DNA of 64,000 nt from an uncultured Candidatus Saccharibacteria bacterium (GCA_964350885.1 CAYGKV010000005.1:1305-65304); one strand, 5' to 3'; numbered from the stretch's first letter, positions 1,252-21,379 are shown. Numbers and translations are program-made. The notes: a model not told the origin generated them from the sequence alone.

Positions 1252-2160
1252 ATGAGCAGTGAAGGTCCCAAGAACCCCAGAGATGTTCCCAAATTTGGAT
1301 ATTTTCGCCCACTCACTAAGGGAGCAGTGGCTCGACTTTTGGAGAGCCGAAATACACGAGGCTCTGAAACTATGCCGGTTGACACTTTCGACGAGAGACT
1401 TAGGGCGACGTACTTACCAAAACTCGCGGCTTTCCAAAAGGCACTCAACTTTCAAGGCGGGATTGTATACTACCCACTTTGTTCAGATGACACATCTCCG
1501 TCCCAAGCCTTCCCAAATAGTATGGTTGTCTACGCAGACACTGATATCCGTGCAGTAAAGAAATTACAGGAATCTGGCCATGCAGCATATGGGTATGACG
1601 CAACAAAATTTAAACTACGAAATCCTGCAGACATCCTGATTCTTTTAAGGGCTGAAATTGATCTAAGCACTCCGCTTTCGCAAGTAAAAGAGGGTGGGTA
1701 TGTCATTTGTCATGATTGGAAGGGAAATGCAACAGAGTTGCGGGGCAAACGAGATTTCGATTTTGTTGCTTTAATACATCCAGGGAAGAATGGCGAGTAT
1801 GTATATGACACCTCAGATCTTGAGGATTGTTGGAAAGAAATGGATGACGACGAAGATCTTCGGGCATTCTCTCGTTCGGGTCTTACGAATTGGAAGTTAC
1901 GGGCCGATTACTGGGACGTTGTTTCTACTGTTAGGTGGATAACTGGTAAGAGAGAGAATTATTTAGAAGAGTACAAGAAAATCCTAGAGGGGGCTCGAGA
2001 GAGAACGATTGAGGGACTTGAGATTATTGATGATAGCTCTCCGTGGATGGAAATAGAGTGGAAAGGGGAAAGCCATACTTTATTTATTGATTTCCCGCAT
2101 AAGAAGGGAATAATTGATGATTTTTACGTTTTCCGGAAGAAAATCCATGAACAAACCTAA
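1252..2160 (+). CDS. hypothetical protein (302 aa), compositionally AT-rich orphan
   Basis: ATG at 1252 and an uninterrupted ORF. GC is clearly lower than the flanking murA and purN genes. I recognise no domain. Confidence 0.5.
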   Translation: MSSEGPKNPRDVPKFGYFRPLTKGAVARLLESRNTRGSETMPVDTFDERLRATYLPKLAAFQKALNFQGGIVYYPLCSDDTSPSQAFPNSMVVYADTDIRAVKKLQESGHAAYGYDATKFKLRNPADILILLRAEIDLSTPLSQVKEGGYVICHDWKGNATELRGKRDFDFVALIHPGKNGEYVYDTSDLEDCWKEMDDDEDLRAFSRSGLTNWKLRADYWDVVSTVRWITGKRENYLEEYKKILEGARERTIEGLEIIDDSSPWMEIEWKGESHTLFIDFPHKKGIIDDFYVFRKKIHEQT

Positions 2161-2788
2161 ACTCATCATTTTTGCATCCGGCACTGCAGAAGCGGGCGGG
2201 TCGGGGTTTGAAAATCTTGTCGAGACGACGAAGCGGGGTGTCCTCGACGCGGAAATAGTTGCAGTTGTTTCCAATCACGAGCATGGTGGCGTGCGGGAGC
2301 GAGCTGATCGTCTCGGCATCCCGTTTATTCTTTTCTCTGCCAATTCCGATTACAAGAAGATCGTTGCAGATTCTGGAGCCGAGTGGGTGGCACTCTCCGG
2401 TTGGCTCAAGAAAGTTTCCGGCCTCGATCCGCAAAAGACGTTCAACGTCCATCCCGCGCTTCTCTCGCAACTTGAGGGACGCTTCGGCGGAGAGGGTATG
2501 TGGGGGCACCGCGTGCATGAAGCGGTGAAGGCGGCGCTCGATAGGGGAGAGATTACAGAATCGGGCTGCTCAATGCATTTTGTTACCGACGAATACGATC
2601 GCGGCCCTGTCTTTTTCGAACATCGTGTGCCGCTTACGAAGGATATGTCTGCGGACGATATTGCAAGAGTGGTACATAAGGCAGAGCACGAATGGCAGCC
2701 GAAAATAACGAACATGGTCGTGCACGGCGAGATACGGTGGGACGGCAAAGACCCGCGATCCTTGGTGGTTCCTCGTGCCACGACATGA
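2147..2788 (+). CDS. purN: phosphoribosylglycinamide formyltransferase-like (PurN family formyltransferase)
   Basis: KPKLIIFASGTAEAGGSGFENLV plus FNVHPALL...HFVTDEYDRGPVFFEHRVP match the PurN/formyl-transferase N-terminal-domain signatures (HxSLLP, HFVTxxxDxGPI). Internal ATG at 2147. Confidence 0.7.
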   Translation: MNKPKLIIFASGTAEAGGSGFENLVETTKRGVLDAEIVAVVSNHEHGGVRERADRLGIPFILFSANSDYKKIVADSGAEWVALSGWLKKVSGLDPQKTFNVHPALLSQLEGRFGGEGMWGHRVHEAVKAALDRGEITESGCSMHFVTDEYDRGPVFFEHRVPLTKDMSADDIARVVHKAEHEWQPKITNMVVHGEIRWDGKDPRSLVVPRATT

Positions 2789-2799
2789 TAGGATGAAAG

Positions 2800-2911
2800 C
2801 CTCCTTCGGGGTCAGGTGTAAATCCTAATCGGTGGTATAGCCCACGAGTCCGCAAGGACATGATCCGGTGTAATTCCGGAGCCGACCGTAAAGTCGGGAC
2901 GAAAGAAGGAG
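2800..2911 (+). ncRNA. FMN riboswitch (RFN element) aptamer
   Basis: CCUCCUUCGGGGUCAGGUGUAAAUCCUAAUCGGUGGUAUAGCCCACGAGUCCGCAAGG...GAUCCGGUGUAAUUCCGGAGCCGACCGUAAAGUCGGGACGAAAGAAGGAG matches the RFN consensus (CUUCGGGGCAGGGUGAAAUUCCCGACCGGCGGUA...AGCCGACAGUGAAAGUCUGGAUGGGAGAAGGA). P1 is CUCCUUC/GAAGGAG. It lies directly 5' of the rib operon. Confidence 0.85.
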
Positions 2912-2942
2912 CAGTCACTCGCTATGCGGGTGGATTGCGCGT

Positions 2943-2966
2943 AACCCCGAAGCGAAGGGGTTTTTT
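2943..2966 (+). terminator. intrinsic terminator acting as the FMN riboswitch expression platform
   Basis: Hairpin aaCCCCgaagcgaaGGGG followed by TTTTTTgTTTgT, 7 nt upstream of the ribE ATG. Confidence 0.7.
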
Positions 2967-2972
2967 GTTTGT

Positions 2973-3578
2973 ATGTTCACAGGCATCATCCAACAGCAAG
3001 GCGTCGTGAAGAGGAAAACTGCAGCGCGCCTGCATATTGAAGCTGCGGCGGTATTGGTGGAGCAACTGGCCCTCGGTGAAAGTATCGCCGTCAACGGCGT
3101 GTGTCTGACCGTTAGCAAGATCCCGGCGATGACGGTCTTCGTGGTCGATGTCATGCAAGAGACGCTGCGCCGCACGACGTTCGGGAACTTGAAGCCGGAT
3201 ATTCCGGTGAACCTCGAATTGCCCATGAGGGTCGATGGCCGGTTTGGCGGTCACATCGTACAAGGGCACGTGGATGGGACAGCGAAGATAATCCGTATAC
3301 AGAGGAACGGCAACAGTCGCATAATTACTTTCGCTGCTCCTGAAAAACTGCTGAAGTATATGGCTGAAAAGGGTTCTGTCGCGATCGATGGCATTTCCCT
3401 GACGCTTATCGACGTGGATGATACGGGATTCAGTGTCGGCATTATCCCGCACACGAGAGACCGTACGACGCTCGCGCGCGCAGCAGTCGGCGACATGGTC
3501 AACGTGGAGGTGGATATGCTGGCCAAATATGTGTACAAATTTAGTAGCGCATCATTAAAGAAACATCATGAAAAATAA
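2973..3578 (+). CDS. ribE: riboflavin synthase (alpha chain)
   Basis: MFTGIIQQQGVV...GESIAVNGVCLTV... and a duplicated lumazine-binding half (GSVAIDGISLTL) are typical of riboflavin synthase. Confidence 0.9.
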   Translation: MFTGIIQQQGVVKRKTAARLHIEAAAVLVEQLALGESIAVNGVCLTVSKIPAMTVFVVDVMQETLRRTTFGNLKPDIPVNLELPMRVDGRFGGHIVQGHVDGTAKIIRIQRNGNSRIITFAAPEKLLKYMAEKGSVAIDGISLTLIDVDDTGFSVGIIPHTRDRTTLARAAVGDMVNVEVDMLAKYVYKFSSASLKKHHEK

Positions 3579-4023
3579 CGACTACCGTATCGCGATCGTC
3601 GGGAGCGATTTTCAGAAATTCGTGACCGACAATTTGGAACATAATTGCGTCGAGACGTTGGTCAGAAACGGTGTGAAGCGGGAACACATCGAGCTCGTGC
3701 GCGTACCGGGCTCGCTCGAGATACCTCTCGCCGCACAGCTGCTCGCAAAGAAAAAGAAGTTCGACGCCATCATAGCATTTGGCGCTATTCATAAAGGCGA
3801 GACGTATCACTTTCAGCAAGTGGCGGACGAATGTATCAGAGGATGTATGAAGGTCTCGCTCGAGTATGAACTACCCGTCATCTACGAAGTGCTGGCTGTA
3901 TATGACATTCGGGATGCGAGAGTGCGCGCCACGCGAAAAAAAGAGAACAGGGGCGTCGAAGCGGCGCTGTCCGCTCTCGCGATGGTTGCCGTTACCCGCG
4001 CGCTGCGGAAGAAAAAGTCATGA
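3568..4023 (+). CDS. ribH: 6,7-dimethyl-8-ribityllumazine synthase
   Basis: RIAIVGSDFQKFVTDNL...VRVPGSLEIPLAAQLLAKKKKFDAIIAFGAIHKGETYHF matches RibH family motifs. Its start overlaps the ribE stop. Confidence 0.85.
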   Translation: MKNNDYRIAIVGSDFQKFVTDNLEHNCVETLVRNGVKREHIELVRVPGSLEIPLAAQLLAKKKKFDAIIAFGAIHKGETYHFQQVADECIRGCMKVSLEYELPVIYEVLAVYDIRDARVRATRKKENRGVEAALSALAMVAVTRALRKKKS

Positions 4024-4616
4024 ACGCCGATACGTCCATAGTTCGTAGCGCGTCGTCGAAGCTCCCGACGTCGTACGGGACTTTTGAGATCTCCATATAT
4101 CGGTCTGTCTTGGATGGCAAAGAGCACGTAGCTCTTCGTATGGGTGATGCAAGCGAGTCACCGGTGCTGACGCGGATACATTCACAATGCGTTACAGGAG
4201 ATACGCTCTTTTCCCTCCGCTGCGATTGCGGTGAGCAGTTGCGTAAAAGTATGGAACTGATATCGAAGAAAGGAGCTGGAGTGATCTTATATCTTGCACA
4301 GGAGGGTCGCGGTATCGGTCTTTCCGACAAAATACGCGCATATGCGCTTCAGGAGCAGGGTTTGGATACTGTCGAGGCGAACGAGGCGCTCGGCAAACCC
4401 GTTGACGCGCGCGATTATGAGATCGCTGCGGATATTCTCAAGGATCTCGGGATCGCAAACATCACCCTGCTCACGAATAATCCCGATAAACGAAAACAAC
4501 TTGCCTCCCACGGCATCGGAGTAGCCGAACTTCAACTTACTATTGTTCCGAACAAACACAATCGCGCGTATCTGGAAACCAAAAGAAGCAAACTGGACCA
4601 CTCGATACCAGCCTGA
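4020..4616 (+). CDS. ribA: GTP cyclohydrolase II (stand-alone, no DHBP synthase domain)
   Basis: RIHSQCVTGDTLFSLRCDCGEQL (the zinc-binding CxCGxQ motif) and YLAQEGRGIGL...TNNPDK are hallmark GCH-II motifs. At 198 aa it is too short to include a RibB domain. ATGA overlap with ribH. Confidence 0.9.
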   Translation: MNADTSIVRSASSKLPTSYGTFEISIYRSVLDGKEHVALRMGDASESPVLTRIHSQCVTGDTLFSLRCDCGEQLRKSMELISKKGAGVILYLAQEGRGIGLSDKIRAYALQEQGLDTVEANEALGKPVDARDYEIAADILKDLGIANITLLTNNPDKRKQLASHGIGVAELQLTIVPNKHNRAYLETKRSKLDHSIPA

Positions 4617-4617
4617 T

Positions 4618-5721
4618 ATGCGGGAAGAACTTGCGCGGGACGAGGAGATAATGCGCCAAACGTTCCGTTTGGCGCAGAAGGGGGGAGGCTGGACAAATCC
4701 AAACCCCCTCGTCGGCGCGATCGTTGTGAAAGACGGCGTGATCGTCGCACGCGGATACCATACGAGGGCTGGTGCTCCTCACGCGGAAGTGGAGGCCATG
4801 CGAGCAGTGAAAGGCGATCTTGGGGGGAGCACGCTCTACGTGAATCTCGAACCGTGCTCGCACTATGGGAAAACGCCGCCGTGCGTGGATGCGATCCTGA
4901 AAGCGGGCGTACGGCATGTCGTCTGCGCGACGTTGGACCCTAATCCGAAAGTACAAGGAGAGGGGGCACGGCGCCTCCGAAAACGTGGCGTACGTGTCAC
5001 CGTCGGGGTGTTGGAACATGAGGCGCGGCACCTGAACGAAGCATTCTTTGCATTTCACGAACACGAACGACCGTTCGTCACGATAAAATTCGCCGCGAGC
5101 CTTGATGGGAAAATCGCAACGAGAACTGGCGATTCGAAATGGATCACGGGAGAAAAGGCTCGCACATACGCGCGCCATTTGCGGGAAGAGTCGCAGGCGG
5201 TCTTGGTCGGCATCAACACCGTGCTTAAAGACGACCCGCATTTGGGAGTGAGGAAGAAAGGAAAAAAGGACCCTCTCAGAATAGTACTCGATTCGCGGTT
5301 ACGGATCCCGCTCACCGCCCGTGTCTTGCGCGATGGCAATGTCCTTATCGTTACGACCGAGCGCGCGAACGCCAAAAAGAAACGATCGCTGCTCGAAAAA
5401 GGTATCGACCTCATCGAGATGAAACGTGCAATAGAAATACCGGTTTTGATGCGCGAGCTGTACGCACGCGGAATAATCAGCGTGTTGGTAGAGGGTGGCG
5501 GAAGTGTTCTCGGAAGCTTCGTCGATGCACGGTGTGTTGACAAAGTGTATGCATTCCACGCCCCAATTGTCATCGGGGGTGAGACTGCGAAAAGTGCAGT
5601 CGGAGGGAAGGGAGCTTCAACCATCCGCGAAGTGCTTCGACTGACCCACGTTGAGCGCAAGACCTTCGATGACAACTCCCTCGTCATCGGCTATCCGAAG
5701 AAACGATGGAATTTGGTATAG
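4618..5721 (+). CDS. ribD: bifunctional diaminohydroxyphosphoribosylaminopyrimidine deaminase / 5-amino-6-(5-phosphoribosylamino)uracil reductase
   Basis: Deaminase motifs HAEVEAM and [14 protein letters not shown], followed by a reductase domain ([15 protein letters not shown]). ATG at 4618, just after the ribA stop. Confidence 0.85.
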
Positions 5722-5736
5722 TGGCAAAGCACGGAC

Positions 5737-5820
5737 GCCGCGGTGGTGAAATTGGTAGACACGCACGTTTCAGAGACGTGTGGGGCAACCCATGGGAGTT
5801 CGAGTCTCCCCCGCGGCACA
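5737..5820 (+). tRNA. tRNA-Leu (anticodon CAG)
   Basis: Acceptor stem GCCGCGG/CCGCGGC, D-arm GGTGAAATTGGTAGACAC, anticodon stem CACGT/ACGTG with loop TTCAGAG (CAG), long variable arm TGGGGCAACCCATGGG, and T-arm GAGTTCGAGTCTC. The six-frame ORF track mis-extends the downstream CDS across it. Confidence 0.85.
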
Positions 5821-6458
5821 TGGGTTTTAAAGCAGTATTTTTTGACATGGACGGGCTCCTCGTGGATACCGAACTTCTGATGTTCAATGCGACTCAGGAG
5901 ATCCTCACAGGAGCTGGAGTCGGGATAAGCAAAGATTGGTACATTCGCGAAAATCTCGGGAAGGGAGTGAGCTCTGTCGAGCTCGCGCGAGAAAAGGGGA
6001 TTTCCGACCAAGAAGTGGAAGTGTTGCGGAAGCGTCGCAACGATCGGTATGGTGAAATACTCAACGAAAGCGTTACGCCGATCGACGGTGTCACAGAGGT
6101 TCTTGAAAAGTTGCACGGACGGTTCTTATTGGCCGTTGTCACGGGCAGTCGCAGAGATCACTTCGATATCATCATGCAAAAAACGCGGCTACTACGTTTT
6201 TTTGACTTCTGCATTACGGGAGAAGACGTAACGAATATCAAACCGGATCCGGAGTCGTATGCAACAGCGATCGTTCGGGCCCACCAGAAAAAAGAACACT
6301 GCTTAGCACTCGAGGACTCTCATAAGGGTGTGAGGGCGGCTAAGGCCGCAGGGTTAACATGTTACGCTATTCCGGACGCACTGACTAAAACACACGATTT
6401 TTCGACGGCTGATAAAGTTTTGAAAAGTATTCGTGAATTGCCGGGTCTCATACTATAG
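5820..6458 (+). CDS. HAD-superfamily hydrolase (beta-PGM/phosphatase subfamily)
   Basis: [12 protein letters not shown] (HAD motif I, DxDGxLxDT), motif II S/T near VVTGS, and the C-terminal K...(L)EDS motif. Start reassigned to the ATG at 5820 because the tRNA occupies the upstream part of the tracked ORF. Confidence 0.75.
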
Positions 6459-6468
6459 TCATGGGACA

Positions 6469-7167
6469 ATGAACATCCGACCGATCAAAACCCGTGTTTT
6501 CAAAGAAGGCGAAGACATTCTCGCCTTTATCATGAAGCATGTTCGGGGTCTGAAAAATGGTTCCGTTCTCGCAGTTACGTCGAAAATCGTCTCGCTTGCC
6601 GAGGGTGCTGTGATGCAAGCCACTACATCGCGGGCAAAAGATGCAATTATTCGCGCCGAATCCGAATGGCAGCTACAAGCAAGGGGAGGGAAAATAACGC
6701 TCAAAAACGGACTCTTGATGTGGAATGCGGGTATCGACGAATCCAATGCGAAAGGGAACCTTATTCTTTTGCCGAAGGACAGCTTCAAGGCAGCCGAATC
6801 ACTCCGCCGCCATCTCACCCAACTTTATAAAGTAAAGTTGGGGGTGATTATCACCGATAGCCGCGTAACGCCGCTTCGAGCGGGTGTCGTGGGCGTGGCG
6901 CTTGGGTATGCAGGTTTCAGAGGTTTACGCGATTATCGCGGCAAGAAAGATATATTCGGGCGAGCGCTCAAATTCACTCAGACCAATATCGCAGACTCTC
7001 TCGCCACAGCGGCAACACTCGCAATGGGTGAGGGGAACGAGCGCCAGCCGCTCTGTATAATCGAAGACGCACCTGTCGTATTCAACAAAAAAGTGAACCG
7101 CAACGAACTAAAAATCGCCCTCAAAGACGACATGTACGCTCCCTTGTTCAAACCCAAACGCCGCTAA
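6469..7167 (+). CDS. CofE-like F420-0:gamma-glutamyl ligase family protein
   Basis: RPIKTRVFKEGEDILAFI...LAVTSKIVSLAEG...NAGIDESNA...GVIITDSRVTPLRAGVVGVALGYAG resembles the CofE/FbiB N-terminal domain fold (PF01996). Confidence 0.6.
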   Translation: MNIRPIKTRVFKEGEDILAFIMKHVRGLKNGSVLAVTSKIVSLAEGAVMQATTSRAKDAIIRAESEWQLQARGGKITLKNGLLMWNAGIDESNAKGNLILLPKDSFKAAESLRRHLTQLYKVKLGVIITDSRVTPLRAGVVGVALGYAGFRGLRDYRGKKDIFGRALKFTQTNIADSLATAATLAMGEGNERQPLCIIEDAPVVFNKKVNRNELKIALKDDMYAPLFKPKRR

Positions 7168-7565
7168 AAGTATTTTTTCAGTGGCTCGAATCTCGGCATT
7201 TTCCCGAGGGTATGGGTGACGATGTATCGTGCCAGCCACCCTGAAAAAAATCCAGCTAGGCCGATTCCTGTAAACATAAAGAGACTATAGAAGTTATTCG
7301 TAAGCTCAAAAAAAATGATCGGCGAATAGAATACAGCAATTAACCATACCTTTCGTTGCCCGCCCAACATAGTAAAAATCAGCGGCAGGAAAAAAACATA
7401 ACTAAGCATTAGGGCGGCAACGGCATGTAAGTCAATCCAAGAGCCCCCAGACTCCGGATAAATAGAAGTGTAAAGATTCCAGATTGGCTCACCAAGTAGT
7501 GCAGCCAATAAAATTGTTAGTGCAAGGAGGGCCGTGTACCTAATAGCGTTAAGAAAGAGGGACAT
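7164..7565 (-). CDS. small hydrophobic membrane protein (4 predicted TM), AT-rich
   Basis: Complete ORF with ATG, 133 aa, almost entirely hydrophobic segments. Lies 3' of the lipase gene on the same strand. Confidence 0.5.
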   Translation of the reverse strand: MSLFLNAIRYTALLALTILLAALLGEPIWNLYTSIYPESGGSWIDLHAVAALMLSYVFFLPLIFTMLGGQRKVWLIAVFYSPIIFFELTNNFYSLFMFTGIGLAGFFSGWLARYIVTHTLGKMPRFEPLKKYF

Positions 7566-7569
7566 AGTA

Positions 7570-9981
7570 TTAGTGGTTAATGAGCCAATTAATGTCGGCT
7601 ACGAGCAGCTGGTAGCCTTGCGGAGTAATGACTCCGATATTCTTTCCGAATTTGAGAGCTTCAAGCATGAGCCTATATGCACGTATTCTATCACTCTGTT
7701 TCTTCAGCTTGGAGGCAGCTGTGAGCATCGAGGTGAGGATATTTTTAGTGTCCTTAGACTTTATCCATCCCAGGGCGAATGCTCGGTTGATGTCGCTCTG
7801 GGTGCTCGCAACTGTCGCGATTACTTGAACGATTCGGCCTGAGGTTGTGGCGTTGTTAACGAGATCCTCTGCGTATGCGGTAATTGTGTGATTACCAAGC
7901 GTTTGGAAGAAGAGGTCGATGGTCGAGCTCGCAGCGACCTGAGCCGTTTCGAATACAACACTTGAAGACGCGACTCCCGTATCGTCAGCGAACTCGACCT
8001 CGACCGGAAGCAGATCCGCATGTGTGTATGTAGATGTGGCGGGCTGCGCGAACGTAATCGTGGGCGGGGTTTGGTCTGCAGGTGTTATGGTCGTTTTGCT
8101 CGGGTTTGTGGGGTCGATATTTACGTCGTGTTCCGTAATGAGGCCGGGGAGTGTGAGGCCCGTGAAGAATGTATCACTCGATGTTGCGTCGCCGATAATG
8201 CTCGTTGCGAGGGTGTATTCTCCGCCACCCCCAGTGCCTTGTGTGATGACCTTGTATTCGCCGTCTTTCGGATTGGGGATAGTCACGTATTCATCGTCCG
8301 TTCCGTAGCCCGAATAGAACGCGTCGGGGATCTCTTGAAATTCTTGGCCCGTGAGGAAATCTTTGCCAACCCTAAGACCGTCGGGGTCTACAACGACAAT
8401 ATCTGCGGGAGAGAGGATTTGGAAGATGAGCACATTTTTTACTATCCCAAATATGCCATGACTATTGTTAACGAGCGTTGCCGCATCGTTGCCGGTAAGT
8501 TTCTTAAATACCTGCCCTTCCGTTTTCGTCGGGAGTTCGTTGTGCTCGAAACCAAAGATTTGTAGGTCACTAGTGACGAATGATGCGGAAGAGAGTGGTA
8601 CAGTGCCATCGCCGATGCCACGTTCCAGCCCTTCGTCGGTCGAGCTGTCGCCGAAATTCTCGGGCATCCCGAACCCCCACAATGTTACGGGACTAATAAC
8701 CGGCGGGGGAACTACACGGATAGCTGTAATTGTTTTGTCGTCGGCTGTCTGTCCAACAAAATTGGAAATTGCTACACCGGAGTCGTAGAGGCCGGCGATA
8801 TTGGTATTCAAATCAGAGAGGAAAAGGTTGTTGGGGTACCATTCTGAATTCGGGAATGATGGGGTCTCGGGTGAGTCCACGTGCTTTATATAGCCATAGA
8901 CCGGGAGCAATTCTTGGACGGACGTGATAGGGATCGCGCGGACATAGTCAAAGAGGTTCGAATATCCATTTTTAAGAGACTCAATAGTTAAGAAAGATTT
9001 AACAACCCTCCCGTTGAAGTCCGTGTCTTCGCTGCCTCCCTCCCACATCAAGTATGCTTTGGGTGCGCCCATGTGCGGCGTACCGAGGAAGATAAGTTTG
9101 CGGACGTCATTATCGTAAAAATTTGATTGAATATATCGTCGCGCAACGAGACCGCCCATAGAGTGAGCGACGATATCTACCTGCGTGCATCCACAGACGG
9201 TCTTTACCTCGTCAATTTTTGCATTTAAGAGCACGGTCGTATCAATGTTGGATTTATGCCAATCGTACGGAAAGGGGAAAAGTGTTGTGCTTGTCGAGTA
9301 ACCGTTGGCAACGAGAGTATCTATCAGGTTGTCGTAGGCATGTGTGATGGGATCAATGAGCCACTCGCCGTTGTGTTGTGCAGATCCAAGGATGCCAGGA
9401 ATGATTATGACAGGAGTAAATGAAGTTGGCGGAGGGGGCGTAAGAGTACAATCGTTTGTGGTGCAGACGGCAAACGCCCAGTCCAAAAGCGTGTTACCTG
9501 AAGAGGCGTTGCTTACAAACAGTATGTTCTGTTGGCCCGGTAATCTCGAGTGTCCCGCTAGTCCATTTGGATAAGAGTCCACCGTCGTACCGCCAAAGTT
9601 CCCGACGTTGTTGTTGCAGTGGGATGTGATGAAGTAGGTTGTGTTGGCGGTGACCGGGAATGATCCTCCCGTAAATCGGTACCCACCGGCGATCTGAGTG
9701 GAGGTGTTGAATGCCGAATACGAGAATGCACCGTTATTGACACTGATACCACAGCTTGTGTCCGCCGTAGCGACTGACAGAACGGTCCCACTCGTCGTCG
9801 CAACGAATGATTGGGTGGGGTAGTTATTGGCGCCAAATGCTTGTTGGTTCACCGACGCTGTGTTGGTCGTTTGCTCGGCAACACGGGTCTCGGCAAATGA
9901 GACCTGTGAACAAAGCAGGATGATTCCCGCAGTGACAACTGCGGCAACTTGGAAAACAGTCCGTGACCCGAAGGGCCTCAT
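7570..9981 (-). CDS. secreted alpha/beta-hydrolase lipase/esterase (PGAP1 / LCAT-like) with C-terminal beta-rich (Ig-like) region
   Basis: N-terminal signal peptide (AAVVTAGIILLCSQVSFA). IIIPGILGS...VDIVAHSMGGLVARRYI is a GxSxG nucleophile elbow in a PGAP1-like context. Long Thr/Ser-rich beta regions follow. Confidence 0.7.
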   Translation of the reverse strand: MRPFGSRTVFQVAAVVTAGIILLCSQVSFAETRVAEQTTNTASVNQQAFGANNYPTQSFVATTSGTVLSVATADTSCGISVNNGAFSYSAFNTSTQIAGGYRFTGGSFPVTANTTYFITSHCNNNVGNFGGTTVDSYPNGLAGHSRLPGQQNILFVSNASSGNTLLDWAFAVCTTNDCTLTPPPPTSFTPVIIIPGILGSAQHNGEWLIDPITHAYDNLIDTLVANGYSTSTTLFPFPYDWHKSNIDTTVLLNAKIDEVKTVCGCTQVDIVAHSMGGLVARRYIQSNFYDNDVRKLIFLGTPHMGAPKAYLMWEGGSEDTDFNGRVVKSFLTIESLKNGYSNLFDYVRAIPITSVQELLPVYGYIKHVDSPETPSFPNSEWYPNNLFLSDLNTNIAGLYDSGVAISNFVGQTADDKTITAIRVVPPPVISPVTLWGFGMPENFGDSSTDEGLERGIGDGTVPLSSASFVTSDLQIFGFEHNELPTKTEGQVFKKLTGNDAATLVNNSHGIFGIVKNVLIFQILSPADIVVVDPDGLRVGKDFLTGQEFQEIPDAFYSGYGTDDEYVTIPNPKDGEYKVITQGTGGGGEYTLATSIIGDATSSDTFFTGLTLPGLITEHDVNIDPTNPSKTTITPADQTPPTITFAQPATSTYTHADLLPVEVEFADDTGVASSSVVFETAQVAASSTIDLFFQTLGNHTITAYAEDLVNNATTSGRIVQVIATVASTQSDINRAFALGWIKSKDTKNILTSMLTAASKLKKQSDRIRAYRLMLEALKFGKNIGVITPQGYQLLVADINWLINH

Positions 9982-10038
9982 GCGGCATGTATACCATGGA
10001 CCAAATGCTTATTTTGCAGCCCTGTGGATTGCGGGTTT

Positions 10039-12009
10039 TTAGAACAAAGAGGTGAAGAAGGAGGTAACGGCGTGCCAAATCTTGCCGAGGAAACTTTCGC
10101 TGGGCACGGATGCGGATGCGGTTTGAGAAGGAGTTGAGGTCGAGGCTGCGGGTATAGGTGGCGTAACCTCGGGGACTTTTTTCGCCACCAGCGCAGGCGC
10201 TTTCTTCGCCACAGGTTTTGGAGTGGGTTTTATTTCTTGAGCAACGGTGGTGCTCGCTACGACGGTTTCAGAGGTTGATGTCGCAACCAGTGGCGTTGAA
10301 GTTGCTGTTATGGGTGTCGAAGTGGCAGCTGTTGGTGTCGTTGTCGCGGTTGATGTCGATACCCCAAGAATAGCTCCGCCACTGTTTGTCGTGTTTACGG
10401 GCTTAGGGAATGATTGAAGGAGCGAGGTCCATGTGCGGCCGAGAGATGCGGGGATTGCATATTCCGTCGCCCATATGCGTGTTTGCATGTCGCTTGTTGT
10501 AGGCTCGAGACCTCCATCAGGCTGTTGGAGATTTGCGAGGTAGTCGACAGGATTCAATCCGTTCGGTGCCCAGTTGGATGGCGATTGTCCGAGCGCGGCG
10601 ATGGCCTGCAGCGCCCAGCTTGTAGAGAAGCTATTTCCCCAGCCGCCATTCGATTGTTGCTGTGAGCGCAAGTAATTTTCTGCTTTTGTCAGTGCAGTCG
10701 AGACATTCGATAGAGATGGGACGAGTGTAAGTGCTTGTATTGCGGCGGCAGTCATGTCAACGCCACCAATCCACGAGCCGTTGCTCAGTTGCCGCGAAAT
10801 GATGAACGCGACCGTTTTCTGGATAATGTCGTCGTTCGCACCGTATCCGGCGTGGAGAAGCGGGAAGAGTGCGAAGATATCATCATTCTCAAAATCAATA
10901 CTCCCGATCTGTGTGCCGTCGAATGCGGCGATGATAGGAGCGATGTAGTTTGTTTGTGTACCAGAATACGGATTGATGCCGAGGGCCATGAGCGCCATCG
11001 CGTGCCGTTCGTAGTCCGTAACGCTTGAAAGCGAAGGCGATGCTGCGAGGAGGTAGTCGCGAAGCAACGTCTTCGGTGTTCCAGGATCGGATGCAGCAAA
11101 CGCGAGTGCTGCCCAGTCAGTGAGGAACAGGGAGTCAAATGAACCGTCGGGTTTTTGTTTACTTGCGAGGTATGCAAGAGCAGATGGAGTGTTGAGTAGT
11201 ATGTGCGAGATTCCTCCACCGCCTCCGCTCGACGGTGTTGGCGCGGGCGTCTCGGGGGTTGTGGTAGCGGGAGCGTCTACGATGGTGATGGATGCGGATG
11301 GGAAATAGAAATCCTCCTGAATCCCGACCGCGAAGGTCCCTGTCGCATTCATCGTAAATATTGCCTGACCATTTGTATCTGATGTTGACGTCGCGAATTC
11401 GGTAAATGAAAAGTCCGGATTCGGAATGCCAACACCGAGTGTAAGCCCCGGAGTTCCGACATACGTTCCAGAAGCAAGGTCATAGCTTTGTGCCGTTGCA
11501 GTAAATTGTTCACCTACGATCGCGGTCGATGTCGAAAGCACGGTTTGTTGTGGGGGGCCAAAGAAAAGGTACACAACATCGCCATCGTGCAATATTTGAT
11601 CGTCAACGCCAACCTGAGGAAATGAACCGTTCACCGCGTAGGTCCAGTTGTAGCAATCGGTCGAAGACGTGAGCGGGACTGAAATGCAGTTGATGAGAAA
11701 TGAGTTGAACGAACTGAAATACGCGAGGTCAGTAATGTCGAAGTCAGTTGTTGTGGCATCGAGCGCGACGAGCGTCGCAAGGAGGCTATCGGCGGGGACG
11801 GATACAGTCGACGATGAGTTGGTTGGCGCGATATCAACGGGCGGGGTTGTTGAGGCGGCAATCTCTATCACTCCGGTAAATGCAGTTGTGGAGCCGCTGC
11901 GGATGGTAATTGTTACGGTCGACGTTGCTATTTCCGGTGTTACGTCATCGGCCAGCACCGAAAGAGGGGAAACAAGGAGCAAAAGTGTGAGAATGAATAC
12001 TTTTTTCAT
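10039..12009 (-). CDS. secreted transcobalamin-like protein: signal peptide - DUF4430 - Ig-like - alpha/alpha-toroid (prenyltransferase/squalene-cyclase-like repeats) - Thr/Pro linker - C-terminal hydrophobic anchor
   Basis: Start reassigned to MKKVFILTLLLLVSPLSVLA (ATG at 12009). The N-terminal domain (CYNWTYAVNGSFPQVGVDDQILHDGDVVYLFFG) resembles DUF4430. The central part has QW-type toroid repeats: QQSNGGWGNSFSTSWALQAIAALG, QQPDGGLEP..., SNGSWIGGVDMTAAAIQAL. Then a TPT-rich low-complexity stretch and a hydrophobic C-terminus. Confidence 0.65.
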   Translation of the reverse strand: MKKVFILTLLLLVSPLSVLADDVTPEIATSTVTITIRSGSTTAFTGVIEIAASTTPPVDIAPTNSSSTVSVPADSLLATLVALDATTTDFDITDLAYFSSFNSFLINCISVPLTSSTDCYNWTYAVNGSFPQVGVDDQILHDGDVVYLFFGPPQQTVLSTSTAIVGEQFTATAQSYDLASGTYVGTPGLTLGVGIPNPDFSFTEFATSTSDTNGQAIFTMNATGTFAVGIQEDFYFPSASITIVDAPATTTPETPAPTPSSGGGGGISHILLNTPSALAYLASKQKPDGSFDSLFLTDWAALAFAASDPGTPKTLLRDYLLAASPSLSSVTDYERHAMALMALGINPYSGTQTNYIAPIIAAFDGTQIGSIDFENDDIFALFPLLHAGYGANDDIIQKTVAFIISRQLSNGSWIGGVDMTAAAIQALTLVPSLSNVSTALTKAENYLRSQQQSNGGWGNSFSTSWALQAIAALGQSPSNWAPNGLNPVDYLANLQQPDGGLEPTTSDMQTRIWATEYAIPASLGRTWTSLLQSFPKPVNTTNSGGAILGVSTSTATTTPTAATSTPITATSTPLVATSTSETVVASTTVAQEIKPTPKPVAKKAPALVAKKVPEVTPPIPAASTSTPSQTASASVPSESFLGKIWHAVTSFFTSLF

Positions 12010-12034
12010 AATGCAACGCCTAACGTAATAATGA

Positions 12035-12556
12035 TTAATAACTTTTTTCATACTTCCACTCGATCGTGTCACCCTCGTTGACTACGACCGACGAAATACC
12101 TTTTCCGGATTTGATGCCGTTCATATAAAAGATCCATACATAACCATCTGCCGCTTTCTTTCCACTGATGGATTCTACGAAATATCCCATCCCCGAGTAT
12201 TCGCGCCCGGTGAATGTGAAGTCGGTAGTTGATGCGAGTGTCTGCATTGCCGCTAGTACTGTTGAGCCTGGCGGCGCGTACACACCGTACGATGTACCAG
12301 AAACAGAAAAGATCGCGTTAGGTATTTCGGCAGCAGCTCCCGGAACAGTCGATATGTCCGGCGTGATTTCTGGCGTGTCTGCGGAGTTAGAAACTGCCAC
12401 GGTCGCGACTCGCTCAGTCGGCGCAGAATGTGTAGGGGTTGTCGTAGCGACAACGACAGACCTGCCCGCTGATGACTCGATAAAATATTGCTGGGTGTAA
12501 AACGCGCTTCCCGCAAGGATGACAACAGTGACTATAAGTGCTGAATATTTTTGCAT
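12035..12556 (-). CDS. secreted DUF4430-family protein (transcobalamin beta-domain-like, putative corrinoid-binding)
   Basis: Start reassigned to MQKYSALIVTVVILAGS (ATG at 12556), immediately after the riboswitch terminator. The C-terminal GYFVESISG...GYVWIFYMNGIKSGKGISSVVVNEGDTIEWKYE matches the DUF4430 pattern. Confidence 0.6.
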   Translation of the reverse strand: MQKYSALIVTVVILAGSAFYTQQYFIESSAGRSVVVATTTPTHSAPTERVATVAVSNSADTPEITPDISTVPGAAAEIPNAIFSVSGTSYGVYAPPGSTVLAAMQTLASTTDFTFTGREYSGMGYFVESISGKKAADGYVWIFYMNGIKSGKGISSVVVNEGDTIEWKYEKSY

Positions 12557-12586
12557 AAAATAAAAAGAATCCGCCCAGAGCGGAGA
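12557..12586 (-). terminator. putative intrinsic terminator, expression platform of the cobalamin riboswitch
   Basis: Minus-strand UCCGC-ucugg-GCGGA hairpin followed by UUCUUUUUAUUUUA, immediately 5' of the ATG at 12556. Confidence 0.4.
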
Positions 12587-12589
12587 CCT

Positions 12590-12790
12590 TTCGATCGTGC
12601 GTCGTATGCGACGCGTTCCTGCTCGGGATAACCAGCTGTTTGAAGACCGGACTCTTCCTCGGGACCCTTCGCATTCGCTCAGGACCTTCGGCATTACCGT
12701 TGCGGCACAGTGGAGGAATTCTTGCCCTCCGTAGTTTTAACGAAGGATGAGGCACCTCACTTCCACAAACAACCGTGGACGCGTATTGTA
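12590..12790 (-). ncRNA. cobalamin (AdoCbl) riboswitch
   Basis: Minus-strand sequence GGAAGUGAGGUGCCUCAUCC...ACGGAGGGCAAGAAUUCCUCCACUGUGCCGCAACGGUAAUGCCGAAGGUCCUGAGCG...GAAGGGUCCCGAGGAAGAGUCCGGUC carries the conserved GGUGCC, AGGGAA, AAnUCC and GCCGCAACGGUAA (CCCGCnnCUGUAA-like) elements and a B12-box-like GGAAGAGUCCGG. It lies 5' of DUF4430 / toroid genes, a typical B12-riboswitch regulon. Confidence 0.7.
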
Positions 12791-17928: not shown

Positions 17929-19503
17929 GTGATGACGAGAATTGACGATCCGTCTCAGCGCATAGAATATCTCCGACGAACGGGAATGTCGGACAGTGTC
18001 ATCCTGAATCGGCTTGTGCTTGAAGGGTGGTCGGAAGAAGATTTTGCGCAGAAGTTTGCGCCGAGGATTACGTCGGCTCCTGAGGAGGAGACTCATCACG
18101 CGAAACTTTCACAGAAGGTGTCGTCGCACATTCCAATACCCACAATCGTACTTTCAATAGCGGCCTTCCTTGCGCTCGGTTTTGCGGGATATGTTATCTA
18201 TAAACCGCCCATGGTGTATTCGATATCGATGCCCGCAGCTAGCTCCGTAGCGGGACCAGCTCTTGTCTACGGTGCATTACCTGCGCTTTCGGATCCGAAT
18301 TATTACGAGAGTGTAAGGCAAAACTTTTCTAACCAGAAAGCCTCTTTCATCGATGCGAATCTTTCTGAAATGAAGCTCACTGTGTATTCAGAAGGTGTCT
18401 TAGCGTTAGAGATACCGATTCTTGCGAAAGGCAAGGTGGGTTCGTGGTGGGAGACTCCCGCGGGCATTTATCAGATCCACTCGAAAGAGAAGAATCATTT
18501 TTCTAGTTTTGGTCAGGTGAATCAACCGTGGAGCATTCAATTTCAAGGGAATTTTTTCATACACGGATGGCCTTCTTATGAAGACGGCACGCCAGTCTCC
18601 TCATCGTATTCAGGAGGCTGTATCCGACTCTCCACAGAGGACGCAAAAAAAGTGTATGATCTCGCCACAACAGGAATGCCAGTCGTCGTATACAGTGCAC
18701 CCGTTGCAGGAGACCGTTTCAACTACCAGCTAAAAACCCCGCCCGTGTCAGCAACGGGATATCTTGTTGCTGATGTGAGGAACGGCACGGTCCTCTCAAG
18801 CAAAAACGCTGCAATCGCGGCACCCATCGCTTCGATATCAAAGCTTGTCTCAGCATTGGTCGCCACAGAATACATAAATCTGGACAAGACGATTCACATT
18901 CCGGATGAAGCGATTGTATACACATCAATACCGCGTCTCAAGGCAGGTTCTGAGGTACGTGCATACGATCTCTTATTTCTCCTTTTGAAAGAATCGTCGA
19001 ATGAGGCAGCAGAGGCGCTTGCTGCTTCTCGCGGGCGTGCGCAATTCATTGCATACATGAACAGTAAAGCTGAAGCGATTAATCTCTCGCACACGGTATT
19101 TTCTGATCCCTCCGGTGCGAAGGGTGATTACTCGACTCCTCAGGATCTCTTCACCTTGTTGCGGTATATCTACGACAACCGACGCTTCGTGCTTGGAATC
19201 ACTTCGGGCAATATTACTGATAGCGCATATGGAGTGCCCGAGTTCAAAAGTATTCGCAACTTCAATATAATCAAAAACTCTCCGGCGAGATTGCTTGGAG
19301 GTAAAGTAGGGCAGACCAGAGAGGCATCTGAGACGTATGCAGGTATATTTGGTGTCAAGGTCGGAAGCGAAGAACGTGAAATTGCTATCATCGTACTTGG
19401 TTCGCGTGATGCGGAAGACGACGTGCGTAAACTCCTCAATTTTGTTCATGACCTATATGCTCCGGGAGAGCCTGGTGGACCGCAAGAGGTCATCTCTCGC
19501 TGA
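17929..19503 (+). CDS. bifunctional L,D-transpeptidase (YkuD domain) / serine-type D-Ala-D-Ala carboxypeptidase (PBP5-like) membrane protein
   Basis: TM helix (IVLSIAAFLALGFAGYVIY). YkuD catalytic region FFIHGWPSYEDGTPVSSSYSGGCIRLS (H...SxGCxR). C-terminal peptidase-S11-like region with an SxxK motif (APIASISKLVSALVA) and LGS...D motifs. Confidence 0.65.
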   Translation: MMTRIDDPSQRIEYLRRTGMSDSVILNRLVLEGWSEEDFAQKFAPRITSAPEEETHHAKLSQKVSSHIPIPTIVLSIAAFLALGFAGYVIYKPPMVYSISMPAASSVAGPALVYGALPALSDPNYYESVRQNFSNQKASFIDANLSEMKLTVYSEGVLALEIPILAKGKVGSWWETPAGIYQIHSKEKNHFSSFGQVNQPWSIQFQGNFFIHGWPSYEDGTPVSSSYSGGCIRLSTEDAKKVYDLATTGMPVVVYSAPVAGDRFNYQLKTPPVSATGYLVADVRNGTVLSSKNAAIAAPIASISKLVSALVATEYINLDKTIHIPDEAIVYTSIPRLKAGSEVRAYDLLFLLLKESSNEAAEALAASRGRAQFIAYMNSKAEAINLSHTVFSDPSGAKGDYSTPQDLFTLLRYIYDNRRFVLGITSGNITDSAYGVPEFKSIRNFNIIKNSPARLLGGKVGQTREASETYAGIFGVKVGSEEREIAIIVLGSRDAEDDVRKLLNFVHDLYAPGEPGGPQEVISR

Positions 19504-19528
19504 ACTTGTATACGGTATACTGATCGAT

Positions 19529-21379
19529 ATGAGTCAGGATCATCAAAACGATGATCGCCGCGTTACATATTTTGCGGCGACGCACACGCGCGGCAAACGC
19601 GACATGTTTGGTATCCGTGCGCTAGATCGCGGAAAGCACGTGTACGTTATCGGGAAGACAGGTATGGGTAAGTCAACTCTGTTGGAGAACATGGCGATAC
19701 AGGATATTCAGAATGGTGAGGGAATCGCCTTTATCGATCCGCATGGGTCAACTGCCGAAAAATTGCTCGATTTTGTGCCACATGATCGCATCAAGGATGT
19801 CGTATACTTCGCGCCCTTTGATACGGATTACCCCATCGGTTTTAACGTGATGGAAGATGTGGGATACGACAAGCGCCACCTCGTTGTCTCTGGGCTTATG
19901 GGAGCTCTCAAGCGTATTTGGGTGGACGCCTGGAGCGCGAGAATGGAATACATCTTGCAAAATACCCTTCTCGCGCTCCTTGAGTATCCGGACTCCACGC
20001 TCCTCGATGTGAATCGTATGCTTACCAACAAGACGTTTCGTCAGGCGGTGGTGGATAAGATTACCGACCCCATCGTGAAAGGATTTTGGACGGAAGAGTT
20101 TGCGGCCTTTACCGATACCTACACTCGTGAAGCGACACCGGCAATTCAGAACAAAATTGGACAATTTACCGCCAACCCGCTCATCCGCAACATCGTTGGA
20201 CAAGGCAAATCGTCATTTGATCTTCGGAAGATTATGGACGAGAAAAAGATCTTTATCGTCAACCTCTCCAAGGGTCGCATGGGAGAGAGCAATGCGTCGC
20301 TCCTCGGCAGCATGCTCGTTGTAAAGATTTACCTGGCGGCGATGTCGAGGGCCGACGAGCCGGCTGCCCGTATGGCCAAGTTGCCGCGTTGTTATTTTTA
20401 TGTCGACGAATTCCAGTCGATGATGAACGAATCGTTTGCAGACATTCTCTCTGAGTCTCGGAAGTATAAACTCGCTCTCACGCTCGCGAATCAGTACATA
20501 GAACAAATGGAGGAGGAAGTGCGCGATGCGGTGTTCGGCAACGTCGGTACGCTCATCGTATTTCGCGTCGGGCCGTTTGATGCGGAGGTACTCGAAACGG
20601 TTTTTGACCCGACGTTTACCCCTGAAGATTTGGTATCGCTCGGTATTGGGCAAATTTACCTTACTCTTATGATTGATGGCGTCGGCACGAAGCCGTTTTC
20701 TGCGGAAACAATTCCCCCCATCGACACTCCCGCCATCTCATATCGCGACGATTGTATCCGCACATCACGCGAGCTATATGGCCGAAAGCGTGCTGACATT
20801 GAAGCGTCGGTCAACAAAAAACAACTTGATTTTGCCCCGTCTCCCAAAAAAGAGAAGGTCTCGAAAGAAGGGAGCGCGTACGGGACGCGTCCGAGAAACG
20901 AAAACACTACTCCACGTCTTCCAGAAGAGTCATCTGCACCTCGCTCTACTCCCATGACGCATCCTGCGCCGCGCGCCGCCCCCCTCCCGCATCGCTCATT
21001 TGCGCACCCCGAATCTTCCGCTGAGCCGACCTTGGATCAGCGTAGCGCGTTGCGTGCGGCACTAGCCCATGCGCGCGCCGAGCCGCCAGCCTCTTCGCGT
21101 ACCGATACCATACGATCACCTGCAGAAATCTTGCGCGAACGACTTGCTCATAAAGTGGCACATACGCAGACTTCCAATCGACCTGTAGGAAATGCTATGG
21201 CTCGGCCCACCCCACCAGATCCCGCACCCCAAGTGAAGAATCAGAATCCCCAACAACCATCTGAGATCCCTTCTTCCACTCACAATTCGCGCGATACTGT
21301 AGCTCATGAGCGTAGCGGGGAGGTCTCTCCGGAAATCCTTAAGCAGATACTTCGCGACAACGGTGGCTCACGAGAGTAG
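19529..21379 (+). CDS. FtsK/HerA-superfamily P-loop ATPase, TraD/TraG/VirD4 coupling-protein-like, with Pro/Ser/Ala-rich C-terminal tail
   Basis: Walker A VIGKTGMGKSTLL with FIDPHG. Walker B-like CYFYVDEFQ. ...LANQY... Central region resembles type-IV coupling protein / DUF87 ATPases. No N-terminal TM. The last ~190 aa are low complexity. Confidence 0.55.
   Translation: MSQDHQNDDRRVTYFAATHTRGKRDMFGIRALDRGKHVYVIGKTGMGKSTLLENMAIQDIQNGEGIAFIDPHGSTAEKLLDFVPHDRIKDVVYFAPFDTDYPIGFNVMEDVGYDKRHLVVSGLMGALKRIWVDAWSARMEYILQNTLLALLEYPDSTLLDVNRMLTNKTFRQAVVDKITDPIVKGFWTEEFAAFTDTYTREATPAIQNKIGQFTANPLIRNIVGQGKSSFDLRKIMDEKKIFIVNLSKGRMGESNASLLGSMLVVKIYLAAMSRADEPAARMAKLPRCYFYVDEFQSMMNESFADILSESRKYKLALTLANQYIEQMEEEVRDAVFGNVGTLIVFRVGPFDAEVLETVFDPTFTPEDLVSLGIGQIYLTLMIDGVGTKPFSAETIPPIDTPAISYRDDCIRTSRELYGRKRADIEASVNKKQLDFAPSPKKEKVSKEGSAYGTRPRNENTTPRLPEESSAPRSTPMTHPAPRAAPLPHRSFAHPESSAEPTLDQRSALRAALAHARAEPPASSRTDTIRSPAEILRERLAHKVAHTQTSNRPVGNAMARPTPPDPAPQVKNQNPQQPSEIPSSTHNSRDTVAHERSGEVSPEILKQILRDNGGSRE

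Follow-up and report, generated by a model that had tools for sequence, protein, structure and literature searches.

Organization of the locus

The DNA analysed here is a stretch of 64,000 nucleotides (nt) from an uncultured bacterium (GCA_964350885.1, CAYGKV010000005.1:1305-65304), and this whole stretch is referred to as the window. Near its start it carries a flavin mononucleotide (FMN) riboswitch, four riboflavin biosynthesis genes (ribE, ribH, ribA and ribD), a tRNA-Leu gene, a gene for a phosphatase of the HAD superfamily and a gene for a CofE-like gamma-glutamyl ligase (Table 1). The initial annotation, made from the sequence, had linked the last two genes to flavin metabolism. Comparison with related loci points instead to two adjacent and functionally separate units. 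The first is a riboswitch-controlled rib operon without ribB and the second is a tRNA-Leu/HAD/CofE-like unit with a folate-type ligase, a reading which we regard as probable.

Over the four stretches compared, the window matches a metagenome contig of 64.2 kb (ENA ERZ27247828, k141_536987). The CofE-like protein has 5949 homologues (the search gave about 5,900), and the closest of them (67-79% identity) belong to Candidatus Kaiserbacteria, Paceibacterota and the Patescibacteria group. By these relationships the host is a Kaiserbacteria-like member of the candidate phyla radiation (CPR), in agreement with the CPR-like host proposed earlier. The comparison set consisted of 80 loci with relatives of the CofE-like protein, one genome per species, with about 10 kb on each side of the gene. 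Clustering of the genes in these loci was used for counting neighbours, and a gene was counted when it was within four genes of the CofE-like gene. Related loci are cited by L numbers; L017 and L015 come from the metagenome-assembled genomes CAYIDD01 and JBBUDH01. Family assignments were judged by the Rfam gathering score and by the curated NCBIfam equivalog cutoffs.

Table 1. Features of the rib, tRNA-Leu, HAD and CofE-like region of the window
Feature	Position	Strand	Evidence and remarks
PurN-like formyltransferase	2114..2788	+	PF00551 69.5 bits; TIGR00639 85.5 bits, below cutoff 150; conserved upstream neighbour of tRNA-Leu in relatives
Putative extended -10 element of rib leader, TGATAGGAT	2786..2794	+	Read from sequence; overlaps PurN-like stop codon
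FMN riboswitch aptamer (RFN element)	2798..2914	+	RF00050, 101.8 bits, gathering score 66.2, E=1.8e-22, model 1-138 of 138
Intrinsic terminator of expression platform	2943..2972	+	Hairpin 2943-2962 AACCCCGAAGCGAAGGGGTT followed by T-run TTTTGTTTGT; terminator scan
ribE, riboflavin synthase	2973..3578	+	NF006767 229.4 bits (cutoff 155); PF00677 twice
ribH, 6,7-dimethyl-8-ribityllumazine synthase	3568..4023	+	TIGR00114 122.9 bits (cutoff 84.6); PF00885
ribA, stand-alone GTP cyclohydrolase II, no DHBP synthase domain	4020..4616	+	TIGR00505 229.7 bits (cutoff 205.85)
ribD, bifunctional pyrimidine deaminase/reductase	4618..5721	+	TIGR00326 366.5 bits (cutoff 156.35); 367 aa
Putative extended -10 element of tRNA-Leu promoter, TGGTATAGT	5714..5722	+	Inside ribD 3' end; read from sequence
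tRNA-Leu, anticodon CAG	5737..5819	+	ARAGORN; position conserved in relatives
HAD-IA phosphatase	5820..6458	+	212 aa; PF13419 115.6 bits; TIGR02009 105.3 bits, below cutoff 153
CofE-like gamma-glutamyl ligase	6469..7167	+	PF01996 152.5 bits; closest to FolC2-type folate ligase model
aa, amino acids; DHBP, 3,4-dihydroxy-2-butanone 4-phosphate.

Synteny and the proposed tRNA-Leu unit

Kaiserbacteria-like relatives possess a conserved gene order at this site: tRNA-Ile, MurA, PurN-like, tRNA-Leu(CAG), a variable slot and the CofE-like gene. The gap between the PurN-like gene and tRNA-Leu is empty in most relatives and holds rib genes only in the window, L017 and L015. L017 has the riboswitch and rib operon in this gap and no HAD gene. 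In L015 tRNA-Leu comes after the end of ribD, and a HAD gene lies downstream of ribD. In L014 the CofE-like gene follows directly after the tRNA. Rib genes occur within 10 kb of the CofE-like gene in only 3-4 of 80 or more genomes. Occupation of the PurN-like/tRNA-Leu gap by the rib operon is therefore facultative, and the genes which follow the tRNA belong to a different conserved neighbourhood.

The distance from the ribD stop codon to tRNA-Leu is 15 nt, and the HAD gene is separated from the CofE-like gene by 10 nt. All 13 relatives examined have a TAnAAT-like box which precedes tRNA-Leu by about 7-15 nt, alike where the upstream gene is ribD and where it is PurN-like. The HAD ATG abuts the tRNA-Leu 3' end with no offset (5819/5820). 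Junctions of 0-1 nt between a tRNA and an open reading frame (ORF) were also found in L014 (9999/10001), L020 (7967/7968), L176 (2962/2963), L180 (2402, minus strand), L181 (117/119) and L027 (6564/6565). The tRNA in such junctions is mostly tRNA-Leu(CAG), and the downstream genes vary (HAD, CofE-like, membrane proteins). An ORF of at least 80 aa starts 0-2 nt past the tRNA 3' end for 7 of the 77 tRNAs in these loci, compared with 2.4% at random positions. From the tRNA's own -10 box and the abutting HAD start codon, we infer that tRNA-Leu, HAD and CofE-like form one unit separate from the rib operon, with its own putative promoter within the ribD 3' end. Since no Shine-Dalgarno sequence can fit at a junction of 0-1 nt, the mRNA may become leaderless by processing of the tRNA 3' end. 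L061 (5227-5303 and downstream), from a more distantly related Patescibacteria genome, also has the CofE-like gene close to a tRNA, with its start 9 nt after tRNA-Ile(TAT).

The HAD phosphatase and its genomic partners

The public gene call for the HAD protein (250 aa, 5706-6458) starts inside ribD and runs through tRNA-Leu, and is an annotation artefact. Its homologues are 212-216 aa long and begin at MxFKA(V/I)FFD, and the real start is therefore at 5820. The HAD motifs DMDG, TGS, the lysine in NIKPD and ED are readable in the protein, as in the HAD-IA phosphatases of the E. coli YqaB/beta-phosphoglucomutase (beta-PGM) type. The best NCBIfam model is TIGR02009 of this same subfamily. However, the protein falls below the subfamily cutoff (105 vs. 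153 bits) and is encoded in an operon with a gamma-glutamyl ligase. In pairwise comparison by BLASTP with E. coli YigB, YbjI and YqaB, it matched YqaB with 27% identity over 177 residues (E=5e-21). This affinity to the beta-PGM group is an outcome which the initial annotation itself had named as counting against its proposal for the HAD protein.

The initial annotation had proposed that this HAD protein is a dedicated phosphatase for 5-amino-6-ribitylamino-uracil 5'-phosphate (ARPP) which completes the riboflavin operon, and that the CofE-like enzyme glutamylates a flavin or deazaflavin derived from the same pyrimidine intermediate. This view is favoured by the position of the HAD gene right behind the rib operon in the window and after ribD in L015. 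Known ARPP phosphatases are promiscuous HAD proteins (PMC12051542), and the window protein shares the HAD superfamily with YigB and YbjI of E. coli, YcsE/YitU/YwtE of B. subtilis and PyrP2 of Arabidopsis. Against it, BLASTP with the two ARPP phosphatases of E. coli, which were the ones compared, revealed no similarity to YigB (E=5) or to YbjI (E=0.53). The specific ARPP phosphatase of Aquifex belongs to the histidine family and not to HAD. L017, which has the rib operon, has no HAD gene.

HAD homologues with 56-61% identity or above were surveyed in ten distinct contexts. In seven of the ten, the HAD gene is beside the CofE-like gene or overlaps it (window, L011, L015, L174/175, L176, L180 and L181). 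No rib genes are present in the loci L174, L176 and L180, while the upstream region is cut by the contig edge in L181 (the contig starts 34 nt before tRNA-Leu) and in L011 (it starts at HAD). Rib genes are near HAD in three of the ten contexts (window, L015 and L179), and two contexts (L177/178 and L182) place HAD in other, unrelated surroundings. In the rib-less loci the HAD gene is in an operon with CofE-like. L174 has Vut_1 (a 'putative vitamin uptake transporter'), HAD, a 197-aa protein and CofE-like; L176 has tRNA, HAD, dihydrofolate reductase (DHFR, on the opposite strand), Vut_1 and CofE-like; L180 has Vut_1, HAD and CofE-like with 4-nt overlaps. In L181, HAD and CofE-like overlap. Kaiserbacteria-like loci with rib genes have HAD in 2 of 3 cases (perhaps 3 of 5) and those without rib genes in 3 of 11, numbers too few for significance. 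These contexts make HAD primarily the partner of the CofE-like gene.

The surroundings of the CofE-like gene lead in the same direction. A RibD_C/DHFR-like reductase of about 180 aa is a near neighbour in 22 of the 80 loci and a canonical DHFR (PF00186, 169 bits) in six, so that any reductase is present in 28 of 80; none of the 28 reductase ORFs in these loci is farther than four genes from the CofE-like gene. Vut_1 is a near neighbour in 23 loci and a weakly ECF-S-like membrane protein in ten, with any transporter-like protein in 33. A reductase or a transporter was found in 41 loci and both together in 20. No cofC, cofD or fbiC/cofGH was present in the Pfam tables of about ten annotated loci, including the window, which cover about 10 kb on each side of the gene. 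Relatives thus link the CofE-like gene to DHFR-type reductases and Vut_1 and not to rib or cof genes, and glutamylation of a flavin or deazaflavin does not find support. Linkage of the gene to unrelated pathways in close relatives had likewise been named in the initial annotation as an outcome against its proposal.

One observation favours the earlier link between HAD and riboflavin. In L179, an independent riboswitch-ribE-ribH-ribBA-ribD operon has a HAD homologue with 56% identity about 1.4 kb upstream, after FBPase and aldolase genes. It is the only association of HAD with rib genes which is independent of the CofE-like neighbourhood. Considered together, the model of a dedicated ARPP phosphatase with a flavin-modifying ligase appears unlikely. 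The HAD protein is better described as a YqaB/beta-PGM-like phosphatase, which may act on ARPP only through general promiscuity.

The riboflavin operon and its leader

The FMN riboswitch was the sole family matched in an Rfam scan of the whole window. Its aptamer matches the model in full length and far above the gathering score, which confirms the RFN aptamer noticed in the initial annotation. The terminator adjoins the ribE ATG with no gap, and the end of its hairpin is 10 nt from ribE, which confirms the proposed terminator expression platform. FMN riboswitches were also detected in the relatives L017 (103 bits) and L179 (108.6 bits). The terminator hairpin has an identical sequence in the orthologous L017 leader, and aptamer and terminator as a whole are almost identical there. 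In this leader TGATAAAAT occupies the position of the window's extended -10-like TGATAGGAT just upstream of the aptamer.

The 5' arm of the terminator, ACCCCGAAG (2943-2951), is complementary to CUUCGGGGU (2804-2812) on the 5' side of the aptamer. In an unconstrained fold, 2795-2812 is paired with 2943-2966. The pairing of CUUCGGGGU with ACCCCGAAG is a plausible antiterminator, which would be prevented by formation of the P1 helix when FMN is bound. In the predicted mechanism, binding of FMN would allow P1 to form and the hairpin 2943-2962 would stop transcription 10 nt before ribE. Without FMN, 2804-2812 would pair with the terminator 5' arm and result in read-through; this switching step comes from the folding prediction. 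The leader resembles that of the B. subtilis rib operon (RF00050 with a terminator platform) in its full-length aptamer, in the intrinsic terminator directly before the first rib gene and in the control of riboflavin biosynthesis genes. It differs in its CPR host and in the predicted antiterminator, for which the 5' side of the aptamer is used. The gene order is also different, since ribE-ribH-ribA-ribD without a ribB domain is found here and not ribD-ribE-ribBA-ribH.

The four rib genes are tightly packed and each protein scores above its curated equivalog cutoff, so that the assignments as riboflavin synthase, lumazine synthase, stand-alone GTP cyclohydrolase II and deaminase/reductase all stand. 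The operon would provide the branch from GTP and the two final reactions of riboflavin formation. With the RibBA model NF006803, RibA aligns over positions 208-405 only, the C-terminal half of the model. Stand-alone RibA is the norm in the closest homologues, as about 110 of 120 are also around 200 aa and contain PF00925 only. Several of these come from Levybacteria, Daviesbacteria, Microgenomates and Paceibacterota, and stand-alone RibA is common in several CPR lineages. Riboflavin genes in CPR bacteria have been reported previously (PMC11188291; PMC10811913) and are among the genes exchanged between Patescibacteria (PMC12455944). Their distribution is patchy; the view that de novo riboflavin genes are atypical for CPR is not supported. 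The rib operon of the window, attenuated by an FMN riboswitch, is conventional. It is ordinary for its well-known class, and its host is an uncommon one.

A scan of metagenome contigs with RibD gave relatives of at most 50% identity, mostly in standard ribD-ribE-ribBA-ribH operons of other phyla. This order was seen in most of the 80 other operons fetched. These contigs served as positive control for the detection of RibB and were of no use for the CPR context. The groundwater contig L179 (10053-13563) shows the gene order of the window, with a fused RibBA of 408 aa at the ribA position. Partial rib sets were observed as well. L025, a Parcubacteria locus, has only ribE-ribH (3260-4301, minus strand) near a CofE-like gene, with flanking ORFs which lack a Pfam match. 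L094, L099 and L119 have ribA-ribD pairs, of which those in L094 and L099 are without riboswitch. The L094 pair (9304-11059) stands alone in unrelated surroundings and no ribE or ribH was detected within about 10 kb.

The dN/dS values (ratio of nonsynonymous to synonymous substitution rates) between the window and L017 are about 0.06 for ribH, 0.12 for ribA and 0.15 for ribD; they are rough because dS exceeds 1. For these three genes dN is comparable to the values for the flanking MurA, PurN-like and CofE-like genes, and GC content is unremarkable. A recently acquired horizontal rib cassette was rejected on these grounds: within this clade, the operon has descended together with its flanks, with RibE as the exception. 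The RibE protein of the window is only 49% identical to that of L017 (5801-6388), while RibH, RibA, RibD and the flanking proteins show 70-83% identity. Each of the two RibE proteins is equally distant from L179 RibE (45-48%). This divergence suggests gene replacement or recombination within the operon.

Absence of ribB

The initial annotation had noticed that the operon lacks ribB, and this is confirmed. With E. coli RibB as tblastn query, neither the whole window nor the loci of L017 and L015 gave a match. This absence carries weight, because the same query detects RibB domains with 41-54% identity in about 50 other rib operons. PF00926 is also absent from the Pfam tables of called genes, which extend to about 54.6 kb of the 64 kb apart from one partial gene. 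The operon had earlier been called complete, a term which is wrong in view of the lacking DHBP synthase, as the same text had itself conceded. A literature search on ribB in CPR bacteria gave nothing specific.

Loss of DHBP synthase could have left the operon as a decaying or non-functional remnant. Besides the lack of ribB in the window, L017 and L015, the presence of a RibBA in L179 with the same gene order and the low RibE identity between the window and L017 are consistent with such a history. This is quite unlikely, as the four ORFs are intact and above their equivalog cutoffs, the dN/dS values of ribH, ribA and ribD are low, and the riboswitch with its terminator is conserved. Moreover, stand-alone RibA is usual among the closest homologues, and a separate ribB is normal in bacteria such as E. 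coli. Purifying selection acts on ribH, ribA and ribD. The constraint on ribH implies that DHBP is available, and ribB is most likely encoded elsewhere in the genome.

On the plus strand, MurA and the PurN-like gene are separated by an ORF of 262-302 aa (1252-2160) which matches neither Pfam nor NCBIfam and which relatives lack at this position. It was considered as a non-homologous replacement of RibB and rejected, since it precedes the riboswitch and the rib-positive L017 does not have it.

Family and probable substrate of the CofE-like ligase

The best-scoring NCBIfam model for the CofE-like protein is TIGR04132 ('putative folate metabolism gamma-glutamate ligase') with 208.4 bits, at a cutoff of 350. 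It is homologous in its catalytic domain to the archaeal and mycobacterial CofE/FbiB proteins (TIGR01916; PDB 2G9I, 2PHN), and the motifs NAGID.SN and ITD are conserved in the alignment. A genuine coenzyme F420-0:L-glutamate ligase, as homologues are named in the NCBI and JGI source annotations, is very unlikely: the PF01996 domain and the match to the Archaeoglobus CofE structures (2G9I, E=4e-29) would agree with it, but the protein reaches only 154.8 bits on TIGR01916, below the equivalog cutoff of 180.65 and below its score on the folate-type model, no F420 pathway genes were seen in any annotated locus, 28 of 80 loci link the gene to a DHFR-type reductase, and in Chlamydia a member of COG1478 acts as FolC.

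This precedent is the FolC2 protein of C. trachomatis (CT611; COG1478; TIGR04132), a CofE homologue which replaces FolC. CT611 complements an E. coli folC mutant (PMC1971073) and is also listed in PMC5041015. The window protein has the PF01996 fold and the best-scoring model in common with it. Further points of likeness are a host with a reduced genome, the lack of visible F420 genes and relatives in which the gene clusters with dihydrofolate reductase genes. By the curated cutoffs the window protein falls outside both TIGR04132 and TIGR01916. The CPR clade is separate (208 vs. 350 bits), and its partners are Vut_1, HAD and the RibD_C-like reductase, not folP, folK and the pqqC-like gene. No paper linking this gamma-glutamyl ligase family to CPR was found in the literature.

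A folate-type ligase is the best-supported reading because of the reductase and transporter neighbours, the lack of F420 genes in the annotated loci and the complementation by CT611. The CofE-like enzyme would most likely add glutamate to folate or pteroate, in the manner of Chlamydia FolC2, and probably not to F420 or flavin. HAD and CofE-like would then form an operon pair which is widespread in Paceibacterota and travels with Vut_1 and a DHFR-type reductase.

Flanking genes of the CofE-like ligase

Downstream of the CofE-like gene, the minus strand of the window (7164-12694) carries a gene for a 133-aa membrane protein without family match, which converges on the CofE-like gene. The next genes encode an 803-aa lipase/PGAP1-like protein and two surface-type proteins with DUF4430/SQHop_cyclase_C. 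In 9-10 Kaiserbacteria-like loci, the two DUF4430-type families are again encoded downstream of the CofE-like gene. A gene resembling the TrwB coupling protein of type IV secretion systems is situated at about 19448-21379. From 21300 to 56400 extends a region of about 35 kb with glycosyltransferase, methyltransferase, sugar-epimerase and Wzy-type genes. One 526-aa protein of this cluster contains a phage phiTE_241 C-terminal domain along with a Laminin_G_3 domain.

The two proposed units and their significance

Several points weigh against the reading as two separate units with a folate-type ligase. No terminator was found between ribD and the tRNA, so transcription may continue from the rib operon into HAD and CofE-like, and both the leader and the tRNA promoter are putative elements recognized at the level of consensus. 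The score of the ligase far below the TIGR04132 cutoff would place it in a third clade of PF01996, and its proposed substrate is drawn from gene context only. In the window itself neither DHFR nor Vut_1 is beside the CofE-like gene, and only the PurN-like gene is present upstream. A phosphatase has no obvious role in folate salvage, which leaves the tight pairing of HAD with CofE-like unexplained. The HAD homologue near the rib operon of L179 fits this reading poorly, and the survey suggests that possibly one more contig has both rib and HAD genes.

The broader proposal, put forward tentatively and as a possibility somewhat short of probable, concerns the 'F420-0:L-glutamate ligase' genes of Paceibacterota and other CPR bacteria. 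These may encode the FolC2-like ligase of a compact folate/pterin salvage module, whose other members would be an importer (Vut_1 or ECF-S-like), a reductase of the DHFR type and the partner HAD protein. In Kaiserbacteria the tRNA-Leu promoter may drive this module as a tRNA-mRNA co-transcript, in which processing of the tRNA 3' end would leave the first ORF leaderless. The riboswitch operon itself is well known, and the downstream pair, as a FolC2-like module, would be a new member or clade of a known kind.

CPR bacteria are usually assumed to depend on their hosts for cofactors. The riboswitch operon of the window is textbook biology, and its value is as a further documented case of patchy vitamin synthesis in CPR. 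The case also shows that the inference of function can be led astray when genes adjoin an inserted operon. The ligase belongs to a very large CPR family which is routinely labelled as F420 ligase, and its neighbourhood points to folate handling, as in Chlamydia. If this is true, metabolic reconstructions of CPR bacteria would change, and a route by which reduced organisms retain folate would be identified.

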